DNA of 64,000 nt from Dehalococcoidia bacterium (GCA_041300405.1 JBGLNK010000001.1:130269-194268), one strand, 5' to 3'. Shown: positions 7,089-54,069, counted from the stretch's first letter. Numbers and translations: made by a program. The notes: a model not told the origin generated them from the sequence alone.

Positions 7089-7297
7089 TCCCGTCCCCGT
7101 ATATTCGAGTTCGGTATCACCTAATCCCTTCAAATAAATCGTATTGAAAATATTATTAATATTACGATCCGGGTTTATCAGTTTTTTGACACACTTGGCA
7201 TTTGAACACTATTGACAATTCTGTTTTAATATTATAAATATAATTGATTTCACTACTTTATATATCATCTTGACTTATGATATTGGAGGAGGCGCAC

Positions 7298-38880: not shown

Positions 38881-40969
38881 AGAAAAACGTTGGTTGCCAT
38901 ATCTTATATTTTCCTTCCTTTCATTTGTGGTTTTAGGTCCGCTCTTGTTGCCCGAATATATATTGACTTTGGATATGCCTTTTGGTCCTGCTGAATCGTA
39001 TAGCAATTACTTTTTTGGGTTTCCAGAATGGTTGGGGAGTATAGCCAGTGCCCCTTTAAGCTTAATATTTCCCATTTTGTCCAGAATTGTTCCGGTATGG
39101 ATTCTACAAAAAATAATCTTGTTAGCTATATTATTTCTTTCAGGCCTGGGGGCATACCGTCTTATCCCCGCCAAAAGTGCCGCAGCATATTATGCCGGCA
39201 TCTTGTATATGATCAATCCTTTCGTTTATGTGCGGATGATGGTGGGGCAGTGGGGAATACTGGTTTCATATGCATTATTGCCGCATGCAATCAAAGCTTT
39301 TATAGAAACCCTGGAACAAGGTAATTGGAAAGCTTTATTAAAGCTGGCTGTTCTGTCTGTCCTGGTAGGTGTAGTGCAAATTCACGGGTTTTTCTTGTTG
39401 CTGCTTTCTTTGTTTATTGTTTTCCTGGTAAAAGCAAGCGCCTGCGGGAACCGTCGGGAAATATTTAAGAGAACTATAGCCGGGTTTGGTGCAATCATGC
39501 TGCTAAACACGTACTGGCTATTACCGGCGTTTACCAGCAGCGGCACTATTTTGGAAGGAATAACTGAAGCTGATATTCTTTTTTTTACTCCCAAGGCAAG
39601 TTCTAACCTCGGTACGGCGATAGATATTGCCACCATGCATGGGTTCTGGAGAGGAGGTATAGATTATCCGGATTATACTTCTCTTTGGAGACTTGCATTT
39701 GCAATTATAATATTCCTGGCTGCATTTGGCTTTACGACGAATATTACTGATAAAAAACGGAAATGGACGATACTTTCTTTCGGAATATTGGGAATTACTG
39801 GTTACTTATTGGCGCTTGGAGCGAGCAGCCGGCTTACACAACCCGTATTTACTTGGTTATGGGAAAACGTACCTTATTTTAACGGTTTCAGAGATACGCA
39901 CAGGTTTGTAATGTTACTTGCTCTGTCGTATGCATATTTGGGCGGTCTCGGCATATTGGAGTTGGTTAAATACGGCCATCATCAGAAGCAGTTCTTATTA
40001 AAGTGGACCATGGTAGCTTTAGTCGGATTATCGATTCTCTCTCCGCTGTTATCTTCGTTTTCGATATTTGGCCTGAATGGTAAAGTAAAAGCGACAAATT
40101 ACCCGCCGGAATGGTATGAAGTAAAGCATTACCTGGATAAACAGGAAGGTGATTATAATGTGCTTTTCTTACCCTGGCATGGATGGTTTGATATTAAGTG
40201 GATTAATAACGAGGATAAACGTCTGGGAAACCCGGCCCGGCACTTCTTTGGCAAATCGATAATATGTGGTGATAACATTGAGATTGGTGACACATACAGT
40301 CAAAACTCGAATCCGGTAAGTAAATACGTGGAATTCTTGTTGCGTAATCAGGAACAGATAGAAAACAAGGGTGAGCTATTGGCGCCGCTCAATATCAAAT
40401 ATATTATTCTTGCACATGAAGCTGATTATGAGAACTATCGATTTTTATTCCACCAGGATGATATTAAAGTTAGCTTGGCTAACAACTTGATAACGCTTTT
40501 CGAGAATAATAATGTCACCGGTATGGTCTATGCGGTAGATAATGTTGTCTATATAGAAAGTTTAAATGAATATCTTGAGCTTAGTAAAACGCAAAATGTG
40601 ATGCAAAATTTATATATCCTGGGAACGGGAGAAGATAGTATTACCGGAATTAATCAGGAAACACTCAAATGTGAGAAAACATGCCCTGTTGAATATTACG
40701 TAAGCGGCAGCTATTTGAAATACACCGTTTTTACAATAAATCAGGAATATGTGGGAAATCACTGGAGATACAATGGAGATAGCGCAGCATATGCGAACCT
40801 TGGTATTATGCCTGTTTTCAAATCATCTGCAAACGGAGGAAAAATCGTAAATAGCAGATTTTACAAAGTCTACTTACCGGGCTACCTCATATCGGCTTTA
40901 ACATTAGGTGTCGTTTTATTTGGTGTTTATTATAAAAGACGCGTTTATCCGGGTGAACATAGAAAATAA
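38873..40969 (+). CDS. large polytopic membrane protein with C-terminal soluble domain; candidate second GT-C glycosyl/oligosaccharyl transferase
   Basis: 698 aa. Asp-containing first loop 'LTLDMPFGP'. About 11 TM helices, then 'VLFLPWHGWFD...NIKYIILAHE'. The architecture resembles YfhO/AftD-type GT-C enzymes, but no motif is decisive. Confidence 0.45.
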   Translation: MTKEKRWLPYLIFSFLSFVVLGPLLLPEYILTLDMPFGPAESYSNYFFGFPEWLGSIASAPLSLIFPILSRIVPVWILQKIILLAILFLSGLGAYRLIPAKSAAAYYAGILYMINPFVYVRMMVGQWGILVSYALLPHAIKAFIETLEQGNWKALLKLAVLSVLVGVVQIHGFFLLLLSLFIVFLVKASACGNRREIFKRTIAGFGAIMLLNTYWLLPAFTSSGTILEGITEADILFFTPKASSNLGTAIDIATMHGFWRGGIDYPDYTSLWRLAFAIIIFLAAFGFTTNITDKKRKWTILSFGILGITGYLLALGASSRLTQPVFTWLWENVPYFNGFRDTHRFVMLLALSYAYLGGLGILELVKYGHHQKQFLLKWTMVALVGLSILSPLLSSFSIFGLNGKVKATNYPPEWYEVKHYLDKQEGDYNVLFLPWHGWFDIKWINNEDKRLGNPARHFFGKSIICGDNIEIGDTYSQNSNPVSKYVEFLLRNQEQIENKGELLAPLNIKYIILAHEADYENYRFLFHQDDIKVSLANNLITLFENNNVTGMVYAVDNVVYIESLNEYLELSKTQNVMQNLYILGTGEDSITGINQETLKCEKTCPVEYYVSGSYLKYTVFTINQEYVGNHWRYNGDSAAYANLGIMPVFKSSANGGKIVNSRFYKVYLPGYLISALTLGVVLFGVYYKRRVYPGEHRK

Positions 40970-41340: not shown

Positions 41341-42993
41341 TTGAAAAAGGGTATATTTTTAATCTTGGCAGTTATTTTAGTCGCCGCGCTCGCCTTGACA
41401 GCTTGTGGTGAAGAGACTCCCACAGCTACTACTACCGCGCCCGCTATGACGACCACAACAGCCCCCAAGACCACTACCCCAGCTGCAACTACGACTAAAC
41501 CAGCAGCAACAACTACAGCTACCGCCGGGCAGCCCAAGTATGGCGGCACGATGAGAATCAGCCGTTTTACCTCTGAAGGTGTCAGCCTGGGAGACCCGCT
41601 GAATCATCGTGGTATGAACAGCTGGTATATGGCTGGCCCCGCATTGGAGACATTGCTGCGTGCTGACGCCAGCGGCGTATTAGTACCATGGTTAGCCACG
41701 GCGTGGAAAGAAGACGTGGCCAACAAAACAATTACTCTTACTATCAGGCAGGGCGTGAAATTCCACGATGGTACGCCCCTCAACGCTGAGGCTGTACGCT
41801 GGAATATGCAATACCGCATGGATGGCAAGATGGCCGCGTACACATCTTTCGCCGCTGTGAAGTCCATTGATACCAACACAGTCCAGATTACTTTAAAAAA
41901 CTGGGATAGCACCGTTATCAATAACCTGGCCTCCGGCCCCGGCATGATAATATCCCCTGAAAACTACTTGAACAACGGGGCGGCCTACGCGGCGGATCAT
42001 CCTGTCGGCACCGGTCCTTTCATATTCAAGGAGTGGAAGAAGAATAGTCTCGTTGTTTATGAAAAAAATCCCAGCTATTGGCAGACGGGGAAGCCTTACC
42101 TTAACCGGATCGAATGGATCACTATTCCTGATATGAATACCAAAGCCATGAGCTTAATTTCTGGCGAACTGGAAACTATTATTACCGTAGACCAGCCGCA
42201 GATCACAACCGTTAAAAACGCCGGCTTTACCCCGATATACCAAAACATTTCCGGCGGCGCTGACGGCTATGTTTTCTCTTCAGCAATTGCGAGCTCTCCT
42301 TGGGCGGACCTGAAAGTGCGCCAGGCGGCCAACTACGCGGTCAACAGGGATGAATACGTAAAAGCCATTTTCGGAGATCTGGGCACAGCTGTTAACCAGA
42401 TGGTGCCGAAAGGTAACTGGGCATATAACCCGGATGTGGTCGGCTACCCGTATAATGTCGATAAAGCGAAACAGTTACTGGCTGAAGCGGGTTATTCGGC
42501 TGGTTTCAGCACCATTCTTATTGGCAGCCAGGATGCTACCATGAACAAACGTGTACTGGCCTTGCAGGACTACTTCAAGAAAGTCGGCATTAACGCCGAG
42601 GTTAAAATCACAGCGGATGCGGTAGTGAGAGAAATGACGACCACCGGCATAGGATGGGAAGGCGTCATCATCAATTCACTCGGTCAGTCCACTGATGTGA
42701 TTGATACAATGAACAGGTTCTACAAGGGCGGTGGACAAACTTTCGTATCCATGCTTACTCCGCCTGACTACGTCAAGCTGATCACGGATGCAGTTGCTGC
42801 TCCTGATTTTGCCACCAAGCAAAAATTAGCCCAGGCGCTGATGAAATCATTCGTTGATACCTATTGTCTGCAGCTTCTTCTTGATACCCGTCTTGATGTC
42901 GCAGTCGAACAAAAGTACGTTAAAAACTCCGGTTTCCTGAAAAGCCTCAATACCCAGATGTGGACACCGGAAGAATGCTGGCTGGATAAATAA
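41341..42993 (+). CDS. ABC transporter substrate-binding lipoprotein, family 5 (peptide/nickel/opine type), with Thr/Pro/Ala-rich linker
   Basis: Lipobox 'LTAC', a 40-aa T/P/A linker, then 'PKYGGTMRI...' and 'ITLTIRQGVKFHDGTPLNAEAV', the family 5 signature region. Confidence 0.9.
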   Translation: MKKGIFLILAVILVAALALTACGEETPTATTTAPAMTTTTAPKTTTPAATTTKPAATTTATAGQPKYGGTMRISRFTSEGVSLGDPLNHRGMNSWYMAGPALETLLRADASGVLVPWLATAWKEDVANKTITLTIRQGVKFHDGTPLNAEAVRWNMQYRMDGKMAAYTSFAAVKSIDTNTVQITLKNWDSTVINNLASGPGMIISPENYLNNGAAYAADHPVGTGPFIFKEWKKNSLVVYEKNPSYWQTGKPYLNRIEWITIPDMNTKAMSLISGELETIITVDQPQITTVKNAGFTPIYQNISGGADGYVFSSAIASSPWADLKVRQAANYAVNRDEYVKAIFGDLGTAVNQMVPKGNWAYNPDVVGYPYNVDKAKQLLAEAGYSAGFSTILIGSQDATMNKRVLALQDYFKKVGINAEVKITADAVVREMTTTGIGWEGVIINSLGQSTDVIDTMNRFYKGGGQTFVSMLTPPDYVKLITDAVAAPDFATKQKLAQALMKSFVDTYCLQLLLDTRLDVAVEQKYVKNSGFLKSLNTQMWTPEECWLDK

Positions 42994-43026
42994 ACAGGTT
43001 TTAACTCTACAGGGTTGAAAAAGTCT

Positions 43027-43064
43027 CCGGGGAGAGCGCAGGTTATTAGATTCGCTCTCCCCGG
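43027..43064 (+). other. 12-bp perfect stem-loop just after the SBP gene (intercistronic mRNA element)
   Basis: CCGGGGAGAGCG-N14-CGCTCTCCCCGG. No T-tract follows. Confidence 0.5.
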
Positions 43065-43126
43065 GACTGATTATACCCGGGAAAAATTCTTAATTATTCG
43101 CCATTAATCCAATTTGAAATTCGGAG

Positions 43127-44077
43127 TTGAATTTGGCAGCCTTTATTATCCGCAGATTAATACAGACGGTAATCGTTATTTTCCTGGTCTCTTTAATAAC
43201 CTTCATGCTGCTCCAGATGGTGCCGGGAGACCCTGTGATAGCGATGCTTGGTGGGGAAGCATCGCCGGAACAGATAGAGGCTCTCCGGAAGGAGATGTGG
43301 CTGGACAGGCCGGTCGTAGTGCAGTACGTCCATTGGCTGACTAACGCTCTCAAAGGAGACCTGGGTACTTCTATTACTCTTAATTACTCCGTCAGCACTA
43401 TTATCTCCGAGCGTCTGCCTTATACCCTTTATTTATCTGCATTAGCCTTCATAATCAGTCCTGTCATCGGTATTATTTTGGGAGCCGTAGGCGCGATACG
43501 GCGGGGCTCCTTCATTGACCCGTTCATCAGTTTGTTTGCCAATACCGGCGTAGCTATACCCATTTTCTGGCTGGCTATTTTAGGTTCTTATTTTTTCGGC
43601 TACAAACTGCACTGGCTGGCGATCCAGGGTTTTACCTGGCCGACTGATGACCTGGTAAGGAGCATTCAAACAACCATCATGCCCGTCATTTGTATGGCTG
43701 TTCCTGCAGTAGCTGTTATGGCGAGGCAAACGCGTTCGAGTGTGCTGGAAGTAATCCGTCAGGATTATGTGCGGACGGCAATGGCCAAAGGATTAAAGGA
43801 ACGTAGTGTGGTTTTTAAGCACGTTCTGAAAAATGCCCTGATTCCGGTAGTCACTCTTCTGGGTTTACAGGTACGTACCCTCGTCGGAGGGGCGGTCTTG
43901 GTGGAGACGGTATTTAATATCAACGGTATGGGCCGGCTTATCGTATCGGCCGGATTCGGTAAAGATCTTCCTGTTTTACAGGCTACCGTCCTTATCACGG
44001 CATTGGCAGTATGTCTGGCTAATCTTGTTGTTGATATTTCTTACGGCTGGCTCGACCCCAGAATCAAGTACGAATGA
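43127..44077 (+). CDS. ABC transporter permease (DppB/OppB-like)
   Basis: 'FIIRRLIQTVIVIFLVSLITFMLLQMVPGDP' and EAA-type loop 'DYVRTAMAKGLKERSV'. Confidence 0.9.
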   Translation: MNLAAFIIRRLIQTVIVIFLVSLITFMLLQMVPGDPVIAMLGGEASPEQIEALRKEMWLDRPVVVQYVHWLTNALKGDLGTSITLNYSVSTIISERLPYTLYLSALAFIISPVIGIILGAVGAIRRGSFIDPFISLFANTGVAIPIFWLAILGSYFFGYKLHWLAIQGFTWPTDDLVRSIQTTIMPVICMAVPAVAVMARQTRSSVLEVIRQDYVRTAMAKGLKERSVVFKHVLKNALIPVVTLLGLQVRTLVGGAVLVETVFNINGMGRLIVSAGFGKDLPVLQATVLITALAVCLANLVVDISYGWLDPRIKYE

Positions 44078-44322: not shown

Positions 44323-45084
44323 TTACTTTTTCTTTTCGCCTTTTCCTGCATCGGCGCCGGGCTTGGCCGCAGCACCGGGTTTAGCTGCAGCCTCACCGCC
44401 AGGTTTGGCTCCTGCCGCAGCTTCGGCACCGGGCTTGGCTGCCCCTTCAGCACCGGCAGCAGCTTCGCCTTCAGCAGCTTCGCCTTCGGCAGCAGCAGCG
44501 ATCGGCTTCTCTTCTTCGAGCTTCATGGTGACTTCAGTAACCTTGACTACCAACTGGTTAGGGTCGGCATGAACGGTAATTGCCGGGTCAAGGGGAATAT
44601 CTTTAACGTAAATACCCTGTTCAAGTTCAGTTAGAATACTTATGTCTACTTCAATAAACGGCGGGACTTTTTCAGGTAGACATTCAATTTTAAGTTCCAT
44701 GATACCCTTGGAGACCATGCGGCCTTTGCCTCTCATGGCAGGGGCTTCGCCAACCAGGATGATAGGGATGTCCATCTGCATCTTTTCATCTTTATTTACC
44801 TGGTAAAAATCAACGTGTAAAAGCTGGCGGCTCAGGATATCTTTTTGAATTTCACGTACAAATACCCGCTTGGGTTCTCTTTCTCCTTCAACACTAAGGC
44901 TCAGGAGACGGGTCGTACCGGCTTGGGCGAGTATTTTGGTAAGCTCGGTAGTGTCGCACTGTAAAGCTTCTGATTTTAAATCATGCCCGAAGAGATGTGC
45001 CGGGGTAATGCCCTGGCGGCGTAATACCTTGGTTTTCTTCCCGATCACATTTCTCCTGGCAGCGGTTAAATTCATTTCTGGCAT
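44323..45084 (-). CDS. rplY: 50S ribosomal protein L25/general stress protein Ctc with long Ala/Glu/Gly/Lys/Pro-rich tail
   Basis: 'RRNVIGKKTKVLRRQGITPAHLFG...' is an L25 N-domain, followed by a Ctc C-domain and a 64-aa low-complexity tail. AAGGGGAA RBS before the ATG at 45084. Confidence 0.85.
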   Translation of the reverse strand: MPEMNLTAARRNVIGKKTKVLRRQGITPAHLFGHDLKSEALQCDTTELTKILAQAGTTRLLSLSVEGEREPKRVFVREIQKDILSRQLLHVDFYQVNKDEKMQMDIPIILVGEAPAMRGKGRMVSKGIMELKIECLPEKVPPFIEVDISILTELEQGIYVKDIPLDPAITVHADPNQLVVKVTEVTMKLEEEKPIAAAAEGEAAEGEAAAGAEGAAKPGAEAAAGAKPGGEAAAKPGAAAKPGADAGKGEKKK

Positions 45085-45206
45085 TTTATGTTCCCCTTTC
45101 CAACTTATCAATTTAAGCACATTTAGACGTAAAAATCAATTAAGAAGTGCAATGGAGTTTGTAAAATCAATATATTAGTACAAATATTCGGTTGTTTGAA
45201 TTAACA

Positions 45207-45232
45207 TTGAAGGGGGCTTTTGCCCCCTTCAA
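45207..45232 (-). terminator. stem-loop downstream of the AprA-like operon
   Basis: TTGAAGGGGGC-tttt-GCCCCCTTCAA. Weak T-tract. Confidence 0.45.
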
Positions 45233-45250
45233 TAATGCTTATAAACACAA

Positions 45251-47149
45251 TTACTTTTTAAAAACGCCTTTGTAATCTTTGTTATGGGCTTCATATTCCT
45301 TTTTCAGATTACCGGCAAAATCCATAGGGCGTTTTTCTGATTTTACCTTGCCGTCCGCCATGCTGACAACCAGGAACTTTACCCAATCCGGCGGGTCGAG
45401 CTCAGGATAATCGATGCGCTGGAAATCCAGCGGCTGGCTGCTTGCTTTACGTGCCATCGAGGCTTGAAGGATAATCTGGGCATGTGTCAACATGCTTAAA
45501 TCTTCCAGGCCGCGCACCAGTTTATGAGGATCGGGGGCATACAGCCGCGGCACGTAATTTTCCTCGATTTCATTAATCGTGTCCAGCCCCATCTTCAATA
45601 GCGCTTCGGTCTTATACTCGGAACAGAAAAACTGCATCGCACGGGCGATTCCGGCGTGCAGTTCCTTCCAATCTATGCCTTCGGTTTTCTTGACCGGCGC
45701 ATAGACGCGCAATTTCTCGATGGCCAGTTGTTCTTTTGAAAGTGGGGCGAATCCAATTTGACCGGCATAATCGGCCGCTTTTCGACCGGCGTATCTGCCT
45801 GTAGACGCGGCAAAACTGTGGTCGCCCGGTGAAAAGAGCTGCATACCCGCAGCGTACAGGCCGTCAAGGCTGGTTTTGAGGCTCCAGTCGGTGATGATGC
45901 CGCTGCCTCTGGTCTGCCGCCACTGCGGCATGCTGATGCCTTCGATGAGCGCGTAATTGGCCAGCAGGTCTCTCGATGATTTAAATCCCGCTTCATTAAA
46001 ACTATCGACGATAATTTTGGTAGTGGATTCTTCTTTGAGCATCATGTCCCAGATTACTTCACGCTCGATGTCCTTCATCCCCGGGAAATCTCCCCAGAAT
46101 GGTAAAGCGTATTCTCCCTTAAGCACACCGTCGCGTAAATCCGTCATACGGCCTTGAGGACTGCGGTCCATCTTTTCTGGCGGTATGCCCCAGCTTGGTT
46201 CGGCTACACGGGGAAGCGGTTTTCCGTTATTATCGATAAGCATGACATTTTCATAGCTGGCATCACCGGCGCCGGTATACCATTTATGCTTGTGTCCACC
46301 GGCGGCGATACGCCAGACACCGGATGATTCCATCAATGTGAATTCGGCTCCGGCTTTCCAGGCCATGGCGATGCCGTCACTGGAAAGTGAACGCGGTCCC
46401 ATGGTAGTAATGCCAGCGAGTTCCGAGTTGAACATCCAGACCGGACCTGAACCGGCTGTGGTCAGAACGGCGGCTTTACACTTGAAAACCATGAATTCGC
46501 CTGTCCGGCTGTTAACACCCGTCGCACCGATGACCCTGCTCCCCTGTTTCCCACCCTCGGTTAAAAGGCTGGTAACCATGACGCGGTCATAAATCCTGAC
46601 ACCGAGGCGTTCACATTCTTTCTTCAGAGCCGGTTTGAAGGTGGTGCCCCAGACGCGTATCACAGCGTTAGTATTGTGAAAGGGGCTCGAGCGTGGTGAA
46701 ATCATAATCTTGGAGGCATCATCCCGGCCTTCAGCGCCGAGGTATTTATCATCGTAATCCCTTATTTTGCCGCCCATCTGTTCCATTTCCTGGAGTGTGT
46801 CCCAGTTCTCTCGTACCTGTATCTCCCGGCCGATGCCGTTGCTGTAAGGCTGCCTGGTTAAACGATGTACCCATTCATCCGGGCCGGCTTTAGACAAGGG
46901 GTGGGTGACACAATCGCACCAGTGGTCGCATCCCGGCCCGCCGGAGCCGCTCCTTATCGTAGCTGATTTTTCTACGATAGCCACTTTTACGCCTTTCCTG
47001 GCGGCGCTGATGGCCGCCCAGCAGCCTGCAATACCGCCGCCCAGGATAAGGACATCCGTCTCGATTTCCTGCTCTTTATCGTATTTAATAGGATACGGCC
47101 AGGCGGGCGCATGCCCATATTTTTCTAAATACTCGTTAAAAGTCGTCAT
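45251..47149 (-). CDS. AprA-like FAD flavoprotein, paralog 2 (fumarate reductase/SDH/APS-reductase alpha superfamily)
   Basis: 'WPYPIKYDKEQEIETDVLILGGGIAGCWAAISAARKG', 'VEKSATIRSGSGG', 'FMVFKCKAAVLTTAGSG'. Colinear with the AprA N-terminal layout. Confidence 0.7.
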   Translation of the reverse strand: MTTFNEYLEKYGHAPAWPYPIKYDKEQEIETDVLILGGGIAGCWAAISAARKGVKVAIVEKSATIRSGSGGPGCDHWCDCVTHPLSKAGPDEWVHRLTRQPYSNGIGREIQVRENWDTLQEMEQMGGKIRDYDDKYLGAEGRDDASKIMISPRSSPFHNTNAVIRVWGTTFKPALKKECERLGVRIYDRVMVTSLLTEGGKQGSRVIGATGVNSRTGEFMVFKCKAAVLTTAGSGPVWMFNSELAGITTMGPRSLSSDGIAMAWKAGAEFTLMESSGVWRIAAGGHKHKWYTGAGDASYENVMLIDNNGKPLPRVAEPSWGIPPEKMDRSPQGRMTDLRDGVLKGEYALPFWGDFPGMKDIEREVIWDMMLKEESTTKIIVDSFNEAGFKSSRDLLANYALIEGISMPQWRQTRGSGIITDWSLKTSLDGLYAAGMQLFSPGDHSFAASTGRYAGRKAADYAGQIGFAPLSKEQLAIEKLRVYAPVKKTEGIDWKELHAGIARAMQFFCSEYKTEALLKMGLDTINEIEENYVPRLYAPDPHKLVRGLEDLSMLTHAQIILQASMARKASSQPLDFQRIDYPELDPPDWVKFLVVSMADGKVKSEKRPMDFAGNLKKEYEAHNKDYKGVFKK

Positions 47150-47313
47150 CTTCGCCTCCGAAAGTATATAAGACTGCGTCTCGACGCGATGAGCTTAGCC
47201 GGTAGTCTTGTTCTTCCAGCAGCCGTGCTGCTAATGGAGGAAAAGCTGGGCTCATACGGGTTGGCGACAAGCCGCTCACTCACCGTAAGTATTTTATTTA
47301 TATAGCCTATTCA

Positions 47314-47649
47314 TTATTCTTCCGGCGGACGGGTATTCGGCGGAGGCGGATTCTTCATGCCGATGCGGAAAAACTCGCCGGTGGCTTTACGCTTCCAGCC
47401 GACACGCTGGTTCATCGGAAACTCCATCGTGATGGCTCCGTTCTGGCAGGCCTGCACGCAATCGCCGCAGAACCAGCATTCATCCGGATACACAACGATT
47501 GGTGGTTTGCCCTTTTCCAGATTAGGCAGCATCACATCGGTGTGGCAGGAATCGACGCATAAATTACAGCCTTTGCATTTCCCGGGGTCTATGGTTACGC
47601 ACAGATTCGGTGTCATTGGATTGGGCATCATATATACTGCATCAGCCAT
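47314..47649 (-). CDS. AprB-like 2x[4Fe-4S] ferredoxin subunit
   Basis: 'CKGCNLCVDSC' and 'CWFCGDCVQAC' CxxCxxCxxxC motifs. 'YPDECWFCGDCVQACQNGAI' parallels AprB 'EPEACWECYSCIKICPQGAI'. Extended C-terminal tail. Confidence 0.65.
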   Translation of the reverse strand: MADAVYMMPNPMTPNLCVTIDPGKCKGCNLCVDSCHTDVMLPNLEKGKPPIVVYPDECWFCGDCVQACQNGAITMEFPMNQRVGWKRKATGEFFRIGMKNPPPPNTRPPEE

Positions 47650-47681
47650 GGTAATTCTCCTTATATATAGAGTAAGTTTTT

Positions 47682-49637
47682 TTATAGCTCACAATGTTTG
47701 CGGTAGTTTTCTTCATAGGTCGGGGCATTAGGCGAAAGCAGCCAGTAATTCAGAGGTAATTCGCCGATTTTAATACCGCCGTTGTCTTTACGGATGGTCA
47801 TATATTTTTTATATTCCGGCGGGTCCATCCGGGGATAATCCAGGCGCTTTAAGTCCAGCGGGCGGCTGCTGGCCTTATGAGCCAATGTCGCTTTTATAAT
47901 AATTTCGTTCAAGGTCACCTGTGCCATGGCTTCCAGTGTGCGTCCCAGTTCATGAGGGTTCCGGGCATAGGCCGAGGCTATTTCGCTGTCTCTCATACTC
48001 TGCAGCCATTCCAGGCCTCTCAGAAGGACTTCTTCATTTTTACATTCACCGCAATAGTCCTGCATGATGCGGACGAGACCCATTTTTAGTTCTTTCCAGC
48101 CTATGCCTTCCTTGCGGTTGACCGGCGCATACACACGTTTTTTCTCGGCCTCTATCTGTTTTCTATCTACAACAGGTTCTTTAGCTGTGGAAGCGTACTT
48201 GGCGGCTTTCCTGGCCGCGTAACGCCCGGTTGTGGCTGAGCCTGAATGATTAGCCCCGCACATTAACGTGGAACCGGCGGCATATAGACCCGGCAGGTTG
48301 GTTTTAAGTTCCCAGTCAAAGATAGGCCCTCCGCCGGATAGACCGCGGAAATGACGCGATCCGTAACCCTTCCACCAGGCGCCCCAGGTATAAAGGTCAG
48401 GCGGTTGAACGGTAGCCTGCAGCATGTCTTTATCCGGGTCGAACCCCCAGTTCTGTAAAGTCCAGTAAACAGGAATACGGGTTTTACCTTCATTACCGAC
48501 CATCAAACCCCATATAGCCCGGCGTTCATGTGCCGGCATTCCGGGCAGGTCGGCGTAAAGAGGCAGCGTGAATTCGCCCTTGGCGATACGCTCAGGAAGG
48601 TCAGGAGCCAGGCGCGGCCCGTCGTATACAAAAGCCCGCTGACCGGGGGCGCAGTGATTACGTTCTTCCACAGTCTTCAGTTCTTTACCGTCTTTATCAA
48701 CCCAGGGGATTTCCTTGCCGTTGGCATCTACAAGGGTGCAGGCAAACCATGTGTTATGAGAACAGCCGGTAGAATACATCAAATAGCTGAAACCGCCGCT
48801 TTGCATCCGGGTGCCGCTGCCTTCCATCATACCCAGTTCTACACCGGCGTCCCACATGGCGGAAAAGCTTTCTGCCGTCAGATTAGGTTCCTGGAAAGCG
48901 GCGCCGCCTTTTTGCTCGGAAGAGAACATCCAGATACCGTTTGGCTTGGAAGAAGAAATAATAGTAGCCTTGGCTTTAAAGATATAGAATTCGCCGGTGC
49001 GGACGTTCACCCCCATCGCGCCGATAACGCGGTTGCCCGGCTTACCGCCTTCGGTAAGAAGATTGGTCACGATAATGCGGTCGTAGATTTTCACTCCCAG
49101 GCGCTTCATTTCTTTGAAAAGCGCCGGTTTTACATTACCGGCCATAACGCGGATGGTAAAGTTATTATCGTAGTCATAAGCGAACATCAGCTTGGTTTTT
49201 TCGTCTCTGAAGCTGGCGCCGACGAAATGATCGTCGACATCCCGTACCTTGATACCCATTTTCTCGATGTCGAGCATGGCATCATAGCTTTCACTGGCGG
49301 AAATGTAGGCGGCGATACCATTACCGAACTCGCCATAGCCCATTTCCCCAAAGGATGTTTTCAGCGCTTCCATCATTTCTGTCGGAGTGATGTTCGAGCA
49401 AGGGTTCGTGCAGGCGAGATGCCAGTGGTCAACGCCGTCCCCGCCTGCGCCGCTACGTATTACCGACGCTTTTTCCACGACGGCTACTTTGGCCCCTCTT
49501 TTTACAGCGCTGATAGCAGCATGGCAACCGGCAATTCCCCCGCCGATGATTAGCACATCGGTAGACACTTCATTCTCTTTGCCGTAATTAACGGGGTAAG
49601 GCCATTTTTTTAACTGCGCGTATTCTGTTTCGTTCAT
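47682..49637 (-). CDS. AprA-like FAD flavoprotein, paralog 1
   Basis: 'WPYPVNYGKENEVSTDVLIIGGGIAGCHAAISAVKRG', 'VEKASVIRSGAGG', 'FYIFKAKATIISSS'. AGGAGG RBS. Confidence 0.7.
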   Translation of the reverse strand: MNETEYAQLKKWPYPVNYGKENEVSTDVLIIGGGIAGCHAAISAVKRGAKVAVVEKASVIRSGAGGDGVDHWHLACTNPCSNITPTEMMEALKTSFGEMGYGEFGNGIAAYISASESYDAMLDIEKMGIKVRDVDDHFVGASFRDEKTKLMFAYDYDNNFTIRVMAGNVKPALFKEMKRLGVKIYDRIIVTNLLTEGGKPGNRVIGAMGVNVRTGEFYIFKAKATIISSSKPNGIWMFSSEQKGGAAFQEPNLTAESFSAMWDAGVELGMMEGSGTRMQSGGFSYLMYSTGCSHNTWFACTLVDANGKEIPWVDKDGKELKTVEERNHCAPGQRAFVYDGPRLAPDLPERIAKGEFTLPLYADLPGMPAHERRAIWGLMVGNEGKTRIPVYWTLQNWGFDPDKDMLQATVQPPDLYTWGAWWKGYGSRHFRGLSGGGPIFDWELKTNLPGLYAAGSTLMCGANHSGSATTGRYAARKAAKYASTAKEPVVDRKQIEAEKKRVYAPVNRKEGIGWKELKMGLVRIMQDYCGECKNEEVLLRGLEWLQSMRDSEIASAYARNPHELGRTLEAMAQVTLNEIIIKATLAHKASSRPLDLKRLDYPRMDPPEYKKYMTIRKDNGGIKIGELPLNYWLLSPNAPTYEENYRKHCEL

Positions 49638-49829
49638 CTGGCAACTCCTCCTGATATATTTACTATCTTTAAAAACATCGGTACCGCCAAACAGTCCTAA
49701 ATTCTAGCACTAACACTGTCAGGAATTCAATAAGATTTTCATAATATGAATTGGTATTTCACAATAAATATAATGATATAATGCGAAATACTAATAAAAT
49801 GTGAACTTGATTAATTACTTGACAACATA

Positions 49830-49838
49830 TGTTATAAT
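49830..49838 (+). promoter_or_regulatory. candidate extended -10 promoter (TGTTATAAT) in the 592-nt divergent intergenic region
   Basis: TGTTATAAT at 49830-49838. About 390 nt upstream of the SBP start. Confidence 0.3.
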
Positions 49839-50229
49839 GTTACAAATGAAAATTGGCGGTTCCCTAAAATACTCAAAACCAGTTATCGGATTTCCATTGA
49901 TTTGAAAAAATATTTGATTTTTTCAATTTCCGTGGTGTTACCGGAGGAACAAGCCAATTTAGAATTGAACTGTATGCCCCATCATAAGAACATATTACTA
50001 TTATATCAATATAAATACCCCGTTCAGGGTATTTAATTTTACTAATATTTATGACATACTCTTGATAATTGAGAAAGTCCGGCTTTTTTTAGCTAAAAGA
50101 ACCTGTTTTTACGAATCATTTTAATATAAAAAATAAGAATTTTCTCTAGACAAGGGGGGCAGATTATGACGGGATGAGCTTACTTTTGAAGCTGGGGAAA
50201 TAATTTATAGAAAGAGGTAAAAGGAATTT

Positions 50230-51885
50230 ATGAAGAAATTACTCTATGCTTTATTAGGCATTATCCTTATTGGTACATTAATTTTAACCGGCTGCGGTGA
50301 ACAAGCAGTTACAACGACTGCCCCCGCTGCAACTACAACAGTAAAGACTACCACTCCCGCTGGAACTACCGGCCCTGCAGCAACCAAAACTACTGCTGTT
50401 GTACCTACTACTGCCGCCCCGGGCACACCCAAAGTTGGCGGTACCATTGTACAACTTCACAACCAGGGACCCAAGGTACTGGGTTATCCGCCGGAAATGT
50501 CCTCTAACGACTATTACTCATGCAACTATTTCAATGAAACACTTTTTGTCATGAGCAACACCGGCGCTTATGAAGGCGTGCTGTGTGAATCATGGAAACT
50601 CGATAAGAATGCCAGTACCCTCACCTACAATTTACGTAAAGGCGTGAAATTCCATGACGGTACAGTAATGGATGCCGCGGCAGTAAAATGGAACATCGAA
50701 CAGATGATAGCCGCAAAAGTAGCCTATTATCCTTACATAACATCTATGGACATTGTGGATGCCAACACTCTCCGGTTGAATCTGAGCTACATCGACCTGA
50801 ACACAGTTACCAACTATTCTTCTATGTACGTTGTCTCCCCAACGGCTTTTAAAAACGCCGGGGCTGATGATGAAGCCAGAAAATCCTGGTCCCGGTTAAA
50901 CCCGGTAGGAACAGGTCCTTATAAGCTCGTCGAGTTTAAACGAGATGCCTATCTGAAAATGACGAGAAATAATGATTACTGGCGCGCAGGCAAACCTTAT
51001 ATCCAGAATATTGAATACAAGATTATTCCTGATGTCTCGGTCTGCTCGGCTTTAATGCAGTCCGGAGACGGAGATGTCTGGACAAGTAATCTGATTAACG
51101 TCCCTACTGCCATAACACTCGAGAAAAAAGGCTTCCAGGTTACCTATGGTGCTATTTCCATGACGCCTTGTCTTTTCTTTAACTCTGATGATCCAACTAA
51201 ACCATGGGCTGACCAGAAAATTCGTGCGGCGGTAGAGTATGCTATCAACCGCCCGCAGTTAGCGGCATTAATCGGATCAGGAAAATATACCCCTCTGACA
51301 CAGATGAGCCAGCCGGGTTCTTACTCCTGGAATGATGATTATGACCCGCGTCCGTTTAATGTTCAAAAAGCAAAAGACCTGTTGAAAGAAGCCGGTTATC
51401 CCAACGGTTATAAGACTAAGATTATGACCATAGCGCGTGATAAGGATATCGCTGCCGCCATCCAGGGATATCTTAAAGAGGTTGGCATTGATGCCACGCT
51501 GGATGTAGCCGACCCCGGCCGCTATTACACTATCTGGCCTCAGGGCTGGGATGAGCTTCTGGTTGCTATGATGCCTACATCACGCAACAGCTCTGAAATA
51601 GTGTTCCAATATGGCCCCCAGCCGATAAACTTCAAGAAAAGCATCAAAAAATCGCCGGAATTTATTGCGATGGCTAATGAAGCTTTAAAGGCTTCCTCTT
51701 ATGAAGATATCAAAGACTTGATGAAAAAGATGGTCAGGCAGTTCAGTGATGAATGCATGGTAGTGCCTCTTTTTGCATCCCCCTACATATTAATCTCCCG
51801 GAATGACTTCCATACCGCATATTTAGGGCCGGTGGATGGCACGCTGTGGAGACACTACGATGATTGGACGGATGATCTCAACTAA
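50230..51885 (+). CDS. ABC transporter substrate-binding lipoprotein, family 5, with Thr-rich linker (paralog of 41341)
   Basis: Lipobox 'LTGC', a T/P/A linker, 'LTYNLRKGVKFHDGTVMDAAAV'. Confidence 0.9.
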   Translation: MKKLLYALLGIILIGTLILTGCGEQAVTTTAPAATTTVKTTTPAGTTGPAATKTTAVVPTTAAPGTPKVGGTIVQLHNQGPKVLGYPPEMSSNDYYSCNYFNETLFVMSNTGAYEGVLCESWKLDKNASTLTYNLRKGVKFHDGTVMDAAAVKWNIEQMIAAKVAYYPYITSMDIVDANTLRLNLSYIDLNTVTNYSSMYVVSPTAFKNAGADDEARKSWSRLNPVGTGPYKLVEFKRDAYLKMTRNNDYWRAGKPYIQNIEYKIIPDVSVCSALMQSGDGDVWTSNLINVPTAITLEKKGFQVTYGAISMTPCLFFNSDDPTKPWADQKIRAAVEYAINRPQLAALIGSGKYTPLTQMSQPGSYSWNDDYDPRPFNVQKAKDLLKEAGYPNGYKTKIMTIARDKDIAAAIQGYLKEVGIDATLDVADPGRYYTIWPQGWDELLVAMMPTSRNSSEIVFQYGPQPINFKKSIKKSPEFIAMANEALKASSYEDIKDLMKKMVRQFSDECMVVPLFASPYILISRNDFHTAYLGPVDGTLWRHYDDWTDDLN

Positions 51886-52061
51886 CACAGAATAGATTTC
51901 AGGGTGGCGTGTTAACGGAAAATAACCGGAGATACGCCACCCTGCCGGTTACCAGGAATCTTTTTTTAATATGTAATTTGTACCATTGTGATATCAACAG
52001 AGTTGTGTAAGTGGATTATTTGCTCCGATATCGCAGATTCTGATATTATCCGAGGTTTTAT

Positions 52062-53012
52062 ATGACAGCGTTTATCATCAGACGTTTACTAATGGCTTTT
52101 CTTGTTCTGCTAATGGTATCATTGCTGGTCTTTTTCGCGATGCGACTAATGCCCAGTGATCCAATTACGATGTATGTTATCGGCACCGGCAATCTGGATC
52201 AGGAATATGTTGATCATTTACGCATTCAATACGGCCTGGATAAACCTTTAATTGTACAATATTTAAAATGGATTTCCGGTGTTGCTACAGGAGATTTCGG
52301 TCAATCACTGTATTACAAGGAAAAGGTCGGTACACTATTAGGCGAGACTTTACCGATTACACTGACACTGGGTGTACTATCTATGGCCGTTAGTATCACG
52401 ATAGGGACTACTATTGGGATGCTGGCGGCTATCAGGCGCGGTAGATGGCTGGATAATATCGTTTCCCCTTTAAGTGTCGTCTTGATATGTTTGCCAAGTT
52501 TCCTGTTAGGTATTTTTTTGATATTTATTTTTGGTTTAAAGATGAATTTATTGCCTTTCTCCGGATATGTTTTGCCGTGGGATGACTTTGGCATGAGCAT
52601 CAAGACATCAATTATGCCGGTTATCTGTACGGCTGCGTTAGGTTTGGCTATGAATGCCCGCCAGATGCGTTCCAGCATGCTGGAAATTATTCGCCAGGAT
52701 TACATCCGCACCGCCTGGTCTAAAGGCCTGACAGAACGCGTTGTAATACTGAAGCACGCGATGAAAAACAGTCTTATCCCTGTGGTTACCTTGATTGGCA
52801 TGGGTGTCGGCATGGTTTTTGCCGGTTCGGTCATTACCGAGACTATTTTTTCCATTCCCGGCATTGGGAGACTATTTGTAAGCAGTATCCAGGGGCAGGA
52901 CTATGTAGTAGTTCAGGACCTGGCACTTATCTTTGGTTCGTTTATTCTTATCGTCAACCTGATCGTTGATATATCGTACAGTTGGATTGACCCCAGAATT
53001 CGTTACAGCTAG
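52062..53012 (+). CDS. ABC transporter permease (DppB/OppB-like)
   Basis: 'FIIRRLLMAFLVLLMVSLLVFFAMRLMPSDP', 'DYIRTAWSKGLTERVV'. Confidence 0.9.
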   Translation: MTAFIIRRLLMAFLVLLMVSLLVFFAMRLMPSDPITMYVIGTGNLDQEYVDHLRIQYGLDKPLIVQYLKWISGVATGDFGQSLYYKEKVGTLLGETLPITLTLGVLSMAVSITIGTTIGMLAAIRRGRWLDNIVSPLSVVLICLPSFLLGIFLIFIFGLKMNLLPFSGYVLPWDDFGMSIKTSIMPVICTAALGLAMNARQMRSSMLEIIRQDYIRTAWSKGLTERVVILKHAMKNSLIPVVTLIGMGVGMVFAGSVITETIFSIPGIGRLFVSSIQGQDYVVVQDLALIFGSFILIVNLIVDISYSWIDPRIRYS

Positions 53013-53025
53013 GAGATTATAGAAA

Positions 53026-53922
53026 ATGGCCGTCATTACAGGTAATGTCTCAATGATACCTGAAAAAGCGCCGCGGGTCAGCGAGTTGCGCCGTTTTATC
53101 AGGATATTTTTTAAACGCTGGGTCGTTATTGTTGGCCTGATTATTTTGTTTATGGTATTATTTACAGCTATTTTTGCCCCACTGCTTGCTCCTTATGGTC
53201 CATATGAAATAGCTGCCGGCATGTCATTAGAACTTCCCAGCGACCAGCACTGGTTGGGAACGGACCTTCTCGGCAGGGATTCTTTAAGCCGGCTTATTTA
53301 CGGTTCAAGAATAGCCCTGGCTGTAGGGTTCATAACCGTTGCTATTGCCTCCGTAATCGGTATTTCTCTGGGGATGCTGGCAGGTTATGCCGGAGGAACT
53401 GCTTACATGATCATCATGAGAGCTGTGGATACTCTAATGTGCTTTCCGGGGTTCATTTTATTGATGTTCCTGGCATCTATACTTGGTAATGGGCTCCGGA
53501 ATGTTATTATCGCTTTAAGTATCGGCACAATTGCCGGATATGTCAGAGTGATGTGCGGCCTAACTCTCAGCCTGAAACAAAATGATTATATTATGGCGGA
53601 AAAATCCATCGGCGCTGGCAACTTGCGCACCATGCTTATACATATACTGCCAAACGCATTTCCGCCTCTTATCGTGTTAATGACGATGCAGCTGGGTACT
53701 TTAATACTAGCCGAAGCCGGTCTTGGTTTTCTGGGCATGGGTATTGTCCCGCCTGAAGCTGCCTGGGGCTCGATGGTCAATGAAAGTTATGTATATCTTC
53801 AGAGTAATCCATGGCTTTGTTTTGCGCCGGGTATTGCAATCTTCCTGGTGGTGTTTTCATTTAATATGGTAGGAGACGGCTTGCGTGATGCCCTCGACCC
53901 GAGGTTAAGGGGATTGCTTTAA
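53026..53922 (+). CDS. ABC transporter permease (DppC/OppC-like)
   Basis: 'FAPLLAPYGPYE', 'DYIMAEKSIGAGNLRTM'. Confidence 0.9.
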   Translation: MAVITGNVSMIPEKAPRVSELRRFIRIFFKRWVVIVGLIILFMVLFTAIFAPLLAPYGPYEIAAGMSLELPSDQHWLGTDLLGRDSLSRLIYGSRIALAVGFITVAIASVIGISLGMLAGYAGGTAYMIIMRAVDTLMCFPGFILLMFLASILGNGLRNVIIALSIGTIAGYVRVMCGLTLSLKQNDYIMAEKSIGAGNLRTMLIHILPNAFPPLIVLMTMQLGTLILAEAGLGFLGMGIVPPEAAWGSMVNESYVYLQSNPWLCFAPGIAIFLVVFSFNMVGDGLRDALDPRLRGLL

Positions 53923-53996: not shown

Positions 53997-54069
53997 AGCG
54001 GGAGACGGGACTCGAACCCGCGACAGCCTGCTTGGAGGGCAGGAACTCTACCAACTGAGTTACTCCCGC
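53997..54069 (-). tRNA. tRNA-Gly(UCC); anticodon loop reads CCUCCAA (C at position 33)
   Basis: Manual cloverleaf: GCGGGAG/CTCCCGC acceptor, ACTC/GAGT D-stem, CCTGC/GCAGG anticodon stem, GCGGG/CCCGT T-stem, TTCGAGT T-loop, U73 discriminator. No encoded CCA. Confidence 0.9.

Follow-up and report, generated by a model that had tools for sequence, protein, structure and literature searches.

Two paralogous AprA-like flavoprotein genes (α1 and α2) flanking one AprB-like ferredoxin gene (β1) raise the question of whether their products form an α–β–α′ enzyme and on what they act. The original prediction envisaged a heterotrimer, or two alternative α subunits sharing a single β. We analysed the locus within a 64,000-nt stretch of Dehalococcoidia DNA (the window) and find that it probably comprises two adjacent α–β modules of an uncharacterized, importer-linked oxidoreductase family, in which deletion of a second ferredoxin gene (β2) created the α–β–α′ order. 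The locus is a good lead for enzyme discovery rather than a new architecture.

Organization of the locus

The three genes are co-directional, as predicted, and each is preceded by its own Shine–Dalgarno sequence (CAGGAGGAG, 49645–49653, for α1; TAAGGAGAA, 47655–47663, for β1; TTCGGAGGCG, 47153–47162, for α2) (Table 1). The α subunits share 41% identity over their full length and have the motifs GGGIAGC, VEK..IRSG.GG and F.(I/V)FK.KA in common, confirming that they are paralogues. Where Archaeoglobus fulgidus AprA has AVAQGLS, α1 reads GDGVDHW (residues 66–72) and α2 reads GPGCDHW (residues 71–77). Reading by eye revealed no obvious signal peptide or transmembrane segment in either protein. β1, which is 80% identical to the β1 of locus L001, contains two CxxCxxCxxxC motifs (Cys25/28/31/35 and Cys58/61/64/68), the segments ECWFCG and GWKRKATG, and a Pro-rich GMKNPPPPNTRPP tail.

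The region between α1 and the divergent SBP gene contains promoter-like hexamers on the minus strand (49730–49701, 49805–49778 and 50009–49981), and an Rfam scan of it matched no family and no known riboswitch. At the other end, the hairpin past α2 is probably the end of the transcription unit; lacking a downstream T-run, it escaped a consensus terminator scan. Pfam scans of 43 larger ORFs of the window, including every non-nested ORF of at least 320 aa, detected no ATP sulfurylase, Qmo/Hdr-like or sulfite-reductase domains, in agreement with the predicted lack of sat, qmo and dsr, the partners of AprAB, in the 64 kb.

Table 1 Features of the locus and its surroundings
Feature	Position	Strand	Description
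α1	47682..49637	-	651-aa FAD flavoprotein of the 'DHW' AprA/PAPS-reductase-like family; ORF and Pfam FAD_binding_2
β1	47314..47649	-	111-aa 2×[4Fe-4S] ferredoxin subunit, cognate partner of α1
β2 remnant (pseudogene fragment)	47183..47233	-	tblastn, shuffling and DNA alignment
α2	45251..47149	-	632-aa FAD flavoprotein of a distinct ~630-aa subfamily; intact, without its own β
G+C-rich hairpin GAAGGGGGC-AAAA-GCCCCCTTC	45209..45230	-	Just past the α2 stop codon; sequence read directly
Divergent intergenic region, α1/SBP gene	49638..50229	.	592 nt, AT-rich, promoter-like sites
Family-5 SBP ABC importer, putative, divergent from α1	50230..53922	+	Pfam; SBP 50230–51885, permeases 52062–53012 and 53026–53922
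Second family-5 SBP locus	41341..44077	+	Pfam; SBP 41341–42993, one permease 43127–44077; incomplete

Origin of the α–β–α′ order

The 164-nt gap between β1 and α2 is not an empty spacer: it contains what is left of a second ferredoxin gene, a degraded 3′ end of only ~16 codons with in-frame stops. The translated remnant, QHGCWKNKTTG*AHRV, aligns with the intact β2 C terminus QRGYWKRKATGEIFRV* (tblastn E = 3e-4; score reached by only 1–4 of 2,000 shuffles), and its DNA matches the β2 end of locus L011 at ~33 of 41 nt. It lies 33 nt upstream of the α2 ATG; intact β2 ends 43 nt upstream in L011 and in a contig carrying a 90% ortholog. This contig reads α1(651)–β1(111)–β2(99)–α2(632)–L25, L011 (86%) has the order α1–β1–β2–α2 beside the same divergent SBP operon as the window, and L105 and L106 read β1–β2–α2. 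The ancestral layout here is α1–β1–β2–α2, from which β2 has been deleted save for a 3′ stub, and this deletion in the source genome gives rise to the apparent α–β–α′ order.

Across the family, the unit is the α–β pair. A same-strand β lies within 300 nt of 94 of the 107 surveyed α genes, and ~7% have no adjacent β. α2-class proteins are paired with short βs in 15 of 17 cases, and every α2 metagenome locus with enough flank (19 of 19, or 20 counting L099) has a β at 16–149 nt. The tail type of β1 co-occurs with α1-class proteins, whereas the α2 class pairs with a tail-less type; the two types are ~50% identical, and both carry ECW.CG and WKRK.TG. At L010, L099, L103, L111, L112 and L119, α2–β2 is found alone with its own ABC system, so the modules are autonomous. 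The window thus contains two adjacent independent modules, one of which has lost its cognate β, a loss that is unique among the loci examined. The α2 gene is intact, and selection on it is purifying (dN/dS 0.064 over dS 0.51 against L009, a 94% relative), similar to α1 (dN/dS ~0.05 against 86% orthologs).

This constraint on α2 is what would be expected of an evolved α–β–α′ complex, whether a heterotrimer or two αs alternating on one β, and so is the placement of α2 in line with β1 behind its own ribosome-binding site; the motifs common to both β types fit it as well, and the αs that have no neighbouring β suggest that borrowing may be possible. Such a complex is nevertheless distinctly unlikely: the stop-bearing remnant sits exactly where the ortholog has β2, all other assessable α2-type loci have their own short β, the α2 class pairs with a β unlike β1, and no second α1–β1–α2 arrangement without β2 was found among the loci examined. 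The heterotrimer or shared-β design is not supported. α2 may now borrow β1 in this one genome, as a secondary consequence of the deletion and not as an evolved design. It could alternatively be a non-functional relic, incapable of turnover without its Fe–S partner and yet to accumulate disabling mutations. The destruction of β2, the otherwise universal short-β pairing of its subfamily at assessable loci and the state of the nearby SBP locus, which is likewise incomplete (a single permease, no ATPases), all speak for this, and the low dN/dS could simply reflect a recent deletion. We regard a relic as unlikely, given the complete 632-aa ORF, the retention of all family-invariant residues including GPGCDHW, the α1-like dN/dS, and the intact ribosome-binding site and 3′ hairpin.

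A large family related to PAPS reductase and AprAB

α1 and α2 belong to a large, unnamed and uncharacterized flavoprotein/ferredoxin family that is distantly related to APS reductase. In a database search, each α had matches in over 3,000 clusters (90% identity), and hundreds of proteins are 60–96% identical to α1, with α2 relatives at 64–94%. The family has 198 representatives (50% identity) at E ≤ 1e-30 and at least 585 loci in GTDB species genomes from more than 10 phyla; hosts include Dehalococcoidales, Desulfobacterota, Acidobacteriota, Clostridia and Asgard archaea, among others. The signature G-x-G-x-D-H-W is present in α1, α2 and the family. Both αs are full-length members of a generic NCBI/JGI 'FAD-binding protein / FAD-dependent oxidoreductase' family, and both miss every curated family cut-off, the best NCBIfam match of α1 being PRK08275 (183 bits against a cut-off of 587; α2 scores 178). 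As originally supposed, the family appears uncharacterized: a literature search yielded no paper on it and no characterized member.

A model of α1 (AF2, pLDDT 88.6) has its best Foldseek matches in 8a8o_A and 1jnr_A (TM 0.66–0.78, ~20% identity), which places α on the AprA/PAPS-reductase branch of the fumarate-reductase superfamily. The best match in both sequence and fold is PAPS reductase from Methanothermococcus thermolithotrophicus (PDB 8A8O; Jespersen et al. 2023, PMC10322725) (α subunit: phmmer E 5e-25, profile E 2e-43, Foldseek E 4e-35, TM 0.66/0.77). Its α likewise carries FAD and falls within the fumarate-reductase family, its ~100-aa 2×[4Fe-4S] β is the best stand-alone match of our β profile (43 bits), and the enzyme is soluble without a membrane anchor, as is the family here. 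The two differ, however, in the capping domain, which is unalignable, in the FAD-binding Trp206–Tyr207 pair, which is unconserved here, in the DHW loop that takes the place of the AprA-type loop, and in gene context, which here consists of importers and not sulfate-activation genes. The αs also score far under the threshold of the related NCBIfam model PRK08275.

AprAB (A. fulgidus 1JNR/2FJA; D. gigas 3GYX) has the same three-domain α fold (TM 0.68), and AprA has the GGG..GC, VEK..RSG and F.VFKAKA motifs in common with the αs here. Asn74 of AprA is replaced by His or Cys and Trp234–Tyr235 by Phe–Gln or Met–Gly, whereas Arg265 and His398 have no alignable conserved equivalent, the capping domain again being unalignable. 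The proposed likeness of the ferredoxin to AprB is borne out in part: the two [4Fe-4S] clusters, the C-terminal extension and the CW.C opening the second cluster are shared, but β is shorter (111 aa versus 150–166 aa) and by sequence only generically 2×[4Fe-4S], with AprB and PAPS-reductase β scoring no better than RnfB, MvhB and OorD.

Association with importers

Importer genes are 5–10-fold enriched within 4.5 kb of α–β modules relative to 4.5–9 kb (0.8–1.05 versus 0.1–0.23 genes per 10 kb), and one lies within 3 kb at 36 of 81 non-redundant loci, which upholds the proposed link to imported solutes. The α–β pairs lie next to or within importer operons of five classes, namely family-5 SBP ABC (the most frequent partner), LIV-type ABC, TRAP, Na+/solute symporter and MFS. 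The α–β genes can lie inside the transporter operon, for example at L035 (SBP–α–β–perm–perm), L053, L058, L087 and L043; L002 reads DctP–α–β–α–β–DctQM (TRAP), and SSF–α–β occurs in eight loci.

In the window, family-5 SBP genes flank the modules on both sides, as predicted; neither SBP locus has ATPase genes, and both are therefore putative importers only. The divergent α1/SBP arrangement recurs in L011 and L034, and its permeases are 75–81% identical to those of L011, the next-closest being other α–β-linked systems; this importer probably supplies the substrate of α1β1. The second SBP locus lies beyond the L25 gene on the α2 side. Of the sampled loci, the L035 SBP–α–β–permease operon is most closely related to it, but it is absent at this position from syntenic relatives, and its link to α2 is uncertain.

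Other recurrent neighbours are IclR regulators, MFS carriers of the D-galactonate (organic-anion) group, Amidohydro_2, a URO-D-like protein, SDR, AFOR and tautomerase, which fit small-acid catabolism. Unlike importers, sulfur-metabolism genes do not recur among the neighbours in ~90 loci. DsrE appears only at a distance, in one set of near-identical loci.

Function of the α–β modules

PAPS reductase α and AprA are the closest solved structures and sequence matches, the α–β organization with a 2×[4Fe-4S] β is the same, and one database source names a relative (P0100) 'adenylylsulfate reductase subunit alpha'. A genuine APS or PAPS reductase of the AprAB or MtPAPSR type, assimilatory or dissimilatory, with sat, qmo and dsr elsewhere in the genome, is nonetheless the least probable assignment and close to negligible, in line with the original rejection of APS reductase. 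Scores fall far below the cut-offs for TIGR02061 (94 and 86 bits for α1 and α2 against 642), PRK06854 (120 and 99 against 557) and TIGR02060, the ~20% identity compares with 38% between MtPAPSR and AprA (PMC10322725), and the altered residues, unalignable capping domain and importer-rich surroundings described above point the same way. It is also very unlikely that the modules use a C4-dicarboxylate as a soluble fumarate reductase/succinate dehydrogenase, or as a close analogue resembling TfrAB, NadB or TcuA, although relatives carry JGI SdhA/FrdA labels, SdhA/FrdA share the superfamily and the FAD_binding_2 and Succ_DH_flav_C domains (hhalign probability 99.3% against E. coli FrdA/SdhA; TM 0.57–0.70 for the α1 model), and some operons include DctP-type TRAP transporters. 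TIGR01812 (88–91 bits against 567), TfrA (80–85 against 718) and NadB (<53 against 450 or more) score far under their cut-offs. The covalent-FAD His is replaced by Gly, H355 aligns with Leu, R390 has a gap opposite it, the E245/RGEGG segment is missing, and H232 and R287 have counterparts only in α1-type proteins; none of these residues is conserved family-wide. In contrast to SdhB/FrdB, β is a simple di-cluster ferredoxin without 2Fe-2S and 3Fe-4S clusters, and no membrane anchor is encoded with the α–β genes.

TRAP and SSF importers serve sulfonates in other bacteria. Together with the place of α in the AprA/PAPS-reductase branch, this would suit a reductase of organosulfonates, or of other S/P-oxyanion esters, that releases sulfite from an imported sulfonate by AprA-type flavin N5-adduct chemistry. 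The sulfite-contacting Asn74 is unconserved, however, the neighbours include no recurrent gene for a sulfatase or for sulfite reduction or export, and DsrE is confined to its one distant setting; we consider this reading highly improbable.

The best reading is that these proteins are cytoplasmic oxidoreductases with FAD and 2×[4Fe-4S] whose substrates are organic solutes taken up by importers, and not APS. For the role of the cofactors, which way the reaction runs, the class of substrate and the electron partner, the following scheme draws on analogy and gene context. A small organic solute would be brought in by the importer, here the divergent family-5 SBP ABC system and in other genomes a TRAP, LIV-type ABC, Na+/solute symporter or MFS organic-anion carrier. 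This solute, probably carboxylate-bearing and presumably neither APS nor fumarate/succinate, would bind with the FAD domain on one side and the family-specific capping domain on the other. An electron pair could then pass between substrate and FAD, as hydride or via a flavin N5 adduct, and the invariant Asp-His-Trp loop at the AprA Asn74 position may act as acid/base. Single electrons would travel through the two β clusters, in one direction or the other, and be exchanged with a soluble low-potential carrier (a ferredoxin, for instance); no Qmo-like partner or membrane anchor is encoded at the locus. Given the variety of partner importers and accessory genes, the family as a whole probably acts on many substrates.

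The flavoprotein operon

The locus comprises three minus-strand genes, which encode two AprA-like flavoproteins (denoted alpha1 and alpha2) and, between them, a ferredoxin (beta1). Each gene has a Shine–Dalgarno sequence 5–9 nt 5′ of its start codon, in agreement with the original prediction of three co-directional genes with their own ribosome-binding sites. The two alpha subunits are 41% identical over their full length; beta1, which has eight cluster-binding cysteines, adjoins alpha1, 32 nt downstream. No obvious signal peptide or transmembrane segment was seen in either alpha or beta when the sequences were read by eye, and an Rfam search of the 592-nt leader found no riboswitch or other RNA, the sole match in the window being a tRNA elsewhere. 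Pfam placed family-5 solute-binding protein (SBP) genes on both sides of the operon, and the other large ORFs of the 64-kb window gave no Pfam match to an ATP sulfurylase, Qmo/Hdr or sulfite-reductase domain. Both observations accord with the prediction of flanking importer loci and of a locus lacking the sulfate-reduction partners sat, qmo and dsr.

Features of the window discussed in the text
Feature	Position	Strand	Description
alpha1	47682-49637	-	651-aa ORF, Pfam FAD_binding_2
beta1 ferredoxin	47314-47649	-	111-aa ORF, two CxxCxxCxxxC motifs
beta2 remnant	47183-47233		3′ end of beta2
alpha2	45251-47149	-	632-aa ORF, Pfam FAD_binding_2 and Succ_DH_flav_C
G+C-rich hairpin	45209-45230		3′ of alpha2, read from the sequence
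L25/Ctc ribosomal protein gene	44323-45120	-	Long Ala/Gly/Glu/Lys/Pro low-complexity C-terminal tail
First family-5 SBP locus	41341-44077
Second family-5 SBP locus	50230-53922
tRNA gene	53997-54069	-	Rfam RF00005, 64 bits, directly after ABC permease genes
TetR regulator and ABC-2 exporter pair	4652-6775		Precede the 475-aa flavoprotein gene
475-aa flavoprotein	7277-8704	+	FAD_binding_2
626-aa ORF	8575-10455	-	No Pfam match
470-aa protein	31360-32772	-	FAD_oxidored (PF12831), no NCBIfam name
698-aa ORF	38873-40969	+	No Pfam match

Comparison with known flavoenzymes

An AF2 model of alpha1 (pLDDT 88.6, pTM 0.91) adopts the three-domain fumarate-reductase-type fold that, together with a 2x[4Fe-4S] beta partner, is also characteristic of AprA. 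In Foldseek searches, the model matched the alpha subunit of the PAPS reductase of Methanothermococcus thermolithotrophicus (MtPAPSR; 8a8o_A) with E 4e-35, TM 0.66/0.77 and 20% identity, AprA (1jnr/2fja) with TM 0.68, and SdhA/FrdA with E ~1e-27 and TM 0.57–0.70. The curated families nevertheless exclude these proteins, every cut-off being missed by a wide margin: alpha1 and alpha2 score 94.2 and 85.6 bits against aprA (TIGR02061, cut-off 641.75), 183.3 and 178 bits against the methanogen-type PAPS reductase alpha (PRK08275, cut-off 587), which they match in two separate stretches only, and 87.7 and 90.5 bits against sdhA_frdA (TIGR01812, cut-off 567), and beta1 scores 31.5 bits against aprB (TIGR02060, cut-off 135.65).

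The residues point in the same direction. The profile of the family aligns to AprA and PAPS reductase in two regions only, the FAD domain and the C-terminal helical domain, and its capping domain (roughly residues 274–432) gives no alignment to either. In a gap-free alignment anchored on the VEK..RSG motif, Asn74 of AprA (Archaeoglobus fulgidus numbering; flavin loop ..RSGAVAQGLSAIN..) is replaced by His73 in alpha1 and Cys78 in alpha2, and the family loop at this position reads G-x-G-x-D-H-W; we denote these proteins the ‘DHW’ family. The AprA pair Trp234-Tyr235, whose MtPAPSR counterpart Trp206-Tyr207 is involved in FAD binding (PMC10322725), becomes Phe248-Gln249 in alpha1 and Met-Gly in alpha2 in the profile alignment, although the model has pLDDT below 50 at residues 240–248. 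AprA residues 261–425, which span the catalytic Arg265 and His398, gave no alignment to the family profile, and no family-invariant arginine follows the conserved Glu272. The proposed check against the A. fulgidus residues thus yielded replacements for Asn74 and Trp234 and no aligned counterpart for the segment carrying the other two. In contrast to AprA, moreover, the alpha subunits are not accompanied by sat, qmoABC/aprM or dsrAB, which are absent from the window and are not recurrent in about 90 related loci, nor are any other sulfur-metabolism genes recurrent neighbours there. The prediction that this is not an APS reductase therefore stands.

Succinate dehydrogenase and fumarate reductase fare no better, despite an hhalign probability of 99.3% against Escherichia coli FrdA/SdhA. 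The covalent-FAD histidine of FrdA (RSHT) is a glycine in both alphas, which read RSG instead of RSH; in E. coli FrdA numbering, the same alignment replaces His355 with leucine, leaves Arg390 in a gap and lacks the Glu245 ‘RGEGG’ segment altogether. His232 aligns to an arginine in alpha1 only, and Arg287 to an arginine found only in alpha1-type proteins. Unlike SdhA/FrdA, which work with SdhB/FrdB (2Fe-2S + 4Fe-4S + 3Fe-4S), the partner here is a di-cluster ferredoxin of 111 aa, and no membrane anchor genes occur in the window or related loci. In their working, the proteins come closest to the soluble alpha-beta PAPS/APS reductases, with FAD in alpha, two clusters in beta and no membrane anchor. 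From the missed cut-offs and the residue comparison, the ‘DHW’ proteins are therefore a distinct branch of the superfamily, with a fold nearest to AprA and PAPS reductase but, at the positions that align, without the active-site residues of either known chemistry.

As judged from its sequence, the beta subunit is a generic di-cluster ferredoxin. At 111 aa, against 150–166 aa for AprB, beta1 lacks the long AprB C-terminal domain; in the PDB, beta matches AprB no more closely than it matches generic ferredoxin domains, and the best small stand-alone partner match to the beta profile is the PAPS reductase beta, at 43 bits. The motifs ECW(F/Y)CG and WKRK.TG are conserved across the family betas, of which the beta1-type proteins carry a GMKNPPPPNTRPP tail and the beta2-type proteins do not.

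Loss of the second ferredoxin gene

The alpha-beta-alpha' order of the window is secondary. Rather than the heterotrimer that the original prediction had entertained, the arrangement is the artefact of a gene deletion: relatives carry alpha1-beta1-beta2-alpha2, where beta2 is the short cognate ferredoxin of alpha2, and the window keeps a remnant of beta2. The contig of a 90%-identical alpha2 ortholog reads alpha1(651)-beta1(111)-beta2(99)-alpha2(632)-L25, a Dehalococcoidaceae MAG locus with an 86% ortholog (L011) has the same four genes and the same divergent SBP-permease-permease operon as the window, and the order beta1-beta2-alpha2 is also found in loci L105 and L106. In the 164-nt gap between beta1 and alpha2, one frame reads QHGCWKNKTTG*AHRV, which matches the beta2 C terminus (QRGYWKRKATGEIFRV*) with a score reached by only 1–4 of 2,000 shuffles; in a long-gap-tolerant DNA alignment, about 33 of 41 nt are identical to the end of L011 beta2. 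Between the end of the remnant and the alpha2 ATG lie 33 nt; the intact gene ends 43 nt before alpha2 in both L011 and the contig of the 90% ortholog. We claim a remnant of the 3′ end of beta2 only, as the 5′ part of the gap gave no convincing alignment to the beta2 start; all the cysteine-coding sequence is gone.

Such a loss is exceptional among the loci examined. Of 107 non-redundant alphas surveyed in 91 sources, 94 are accompanied by a beta on the same strand within 300 nt, and 15 of the 17 alpha2-class alphas are paired with the short, tail-less beta type. Among the alpha2-type metagenome loci, all those with sufficient flank (19, or 20 with L099 included) have such a beta 16–149 nt away, the four apparent exceptions being contigs that end 2–76 nt after alpha2. 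An 86% relative, L012, comes from the SPRUCE peat site. Two contigs of the closest relatives stop short of the beta2 region: that of P0121 (L009) starts 26 nt upstream of alpha2, and that of P0001 (L091) ends at the beta1 stop codon. In the window, alpha1 retains its cognate beta within about 300 nt, and the alpha2 module has lost its own secondarily. The alpha2 gene is intact, with a dN/dS of 0.064 against a 94% relative, similar to that of alpha1 (about 0.05).

The four-gene ancestral order might suggest an obligate alpha1beta1-alpha2beta2 hetero-complex. We rejected this as the main reading on two grounds: alpha2-beta2 is often found by itself, beside an ABC transporter of its own, and the second module beside alpha1-beta1 varies among close relatives, with L001 and L092 having a 660-aa alpha' with its own beta where L011 has alpha2-beta2. 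For the same reasons, the modules are better seen as autonomous alpha-beta enzymes. If this is right, the locus is a natural test of an alpha subunit’s capacity to outlive the loss of its own ferredoxin. In the 88% relative L092, a Tautomerase_2 gene (3026-3406) lies between beta1 and the second alpha, of the L001 alpha' type, a placement which hints at an enol or enamine as the product of the first enzyme.

Extent of the family

The ‘DHW’ proteins belong to a well-known superfamily, within which they form a large, coherent and uncharacterised family. For each alpha there are thousands of relatives, none with more than a generic name, and hundreds of proteins are 60–96% (alpha1) or 64–94% (alpha2) identical to it over the full length. 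Both alphas contain the motif G-x-G-(V/C/I)-D-H-W, the strict pattern of which is present in 82 of 107 surveyed alphas. A scan of GTDB species genomes found at least 585 loci, all of them in MAGs, from Dehalococcoidales, Desulfobacterota, Acidobacteriota, Actinomycetes, Anaerolineae, Clostridia, Spirochaetia, Aminicenantes, Marinimicrobia, Gemmatimonadota and Asgard archaea. When 1.84 billion representatives were searched exhaustively, 198 proteins reached E<=1e-30, of which about 25 are full-length 50%-identity clusters. There was no cultured host among 80 GTDB loci or the named database matches, all of which are MAG-derived; no plasmid homologue was found, and we found no paper describing the family.

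One subfamily, with the order Na+/solute symporter-alpha(650)-beta(90–97) (L072 and relatives; L056, L065, L068, L071–L073, L076 and L081), is 70–75% identical across Clostridia, Planctomycetes, Acidobacteriota and six Asgard lineages (Loki-, Thor-, Odin-, Heimdall-, Hermod- and Promethearchaeota), which implies that a strongly conserved function was recently transferred between domains.

If this delimitation is true, thousands of genes labelled ‘FAD-binding protein’, ‘SdhA/FrdA’ or ‘adenylylsulfate reductase’ belong to one importer-linked enzyme family, abundant in poorly understood anaerobes such as peat and sediment Dehalococcoidales, Acidobacteriota, Desulfobacterota and Asgard archaea, and its definition would keep metagenomes from being wrongly credited with sulfate reduction or fumarate respiration.

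Importers and inferred function

Five unrelated importer classes are linked to the alpha-beta pairs: family-5 SBP ABC systems, LIV-type ABC systems, TRAP transporters, Na+/solute symporters (8 loci) and MFS transporters of the organic-anion group. An importer gene lies within 3 kb in 36 of 81 non-redundant loci. Family-5 systems occur in 17 of the 81, and are operonic in L035 (SBP-alpha-beta-permease-permease), L053, L058, L087, L043, L010 and the Heimdallarchaeon L052. The predicted link to an imported solute is borne out by gene density: SBP5, permease and TRAP genes have a density of 0.8–1.05 per 10 kb up to 4.5 kb from the modules and of 0.1–0.23 per 10 kb at 4.5–9 kb in the same loci. The divergent transporter of the window is orthologous to that of L011 (permeases 75–81% identical), and the next-closest systems are other alpha-beta-linked ones. 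No specific ligand could be assigned from the SBPs, whose similarity to NCBIfam and PDB entries goes no further than a generic GsiB/NikA/DppA level. The other genes that recur near the modules encode URO-D-like proteins, tightly linked in 14 loci, Amidohydro_2 proteins, IclR regulators, SDRs, aldehyde:ferredoxin oxidoreductases and a tautomerase.

Importer linkage, these neighbours and the lack of sulfur genes, signal peptides and transmembrane segments lead us to infer a cytoplasmic FAD plus 2x[4Fe-4S] oxidoreductase, whose substrate would be an imported, probably carboxylate-bearing organic solute and which would exchange electrons, by way of beta, with a soluble low-potential carrier. A fuller reading, which we consider unlikely, makes the ‘DHW’ alpha-beta pairs a new class of ferredoxin-linked flavoenzymes, sister to the APS/PAPS reductases, that oxidize or reduce imported organic acids or peptide-like compounds in anaerobes from Dehalococcoidia to Asgard archaea; the Asp-His-Trp flavin loop, absent from characterised members of the superfamily, would do the chemistry, two different pairs in one operon (ancestrally here) would carry out redox steps, consecutive or coupled, on a single imported substrate, and alpha2 would have been rewired to beta1 in this genome. 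If the family is as delimited above, it gives enzyme discovery a concrete target, since its ligand can be sought through the neighbouring binding proteins.

Several loci have distinctive arrangements. A conserved operon in Acidobacteriota (L040, L045–L049 and L057) reads alpha(~700)-beta-MFS(organic-anion type)-URO-D-like-alpha(638)-beta(97), with a divergent IclR gene. In L002, a 126.8-kb ENA scaffold, an eight-gene unit, DctP-alpha(556)-beta(83)-alpha(659)-beta(116)-DctQ-DctM, is tandemly duplicated, and this TRAP operon pairs a shorter, PAPS reductase-sized alpha-beta with a long one. Within the window, both family-5 SBP loci lack Opp-type ATPase genes; the first contains one permease only and directly adjoins the oppositely oriented L25 gene, an arrangement suggestive of a transporter operon that is rearranged or incomplete. 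The L25/Ctc gene keeps its synteny with the alpha-beta locus in L001 and in the contig that carries the 90%-identical alpha2 ortholog.

Elsewhere in the window, the 475-aa flavoprotein is a third member of the FrdA superfamily, with the vinyl phenol reductase VprA as its best NCBIfam match (243 bits against a cut-off of 600), and the 698-aa ORF sits within a glycosyltransferase/polysaccharide gene cluster.
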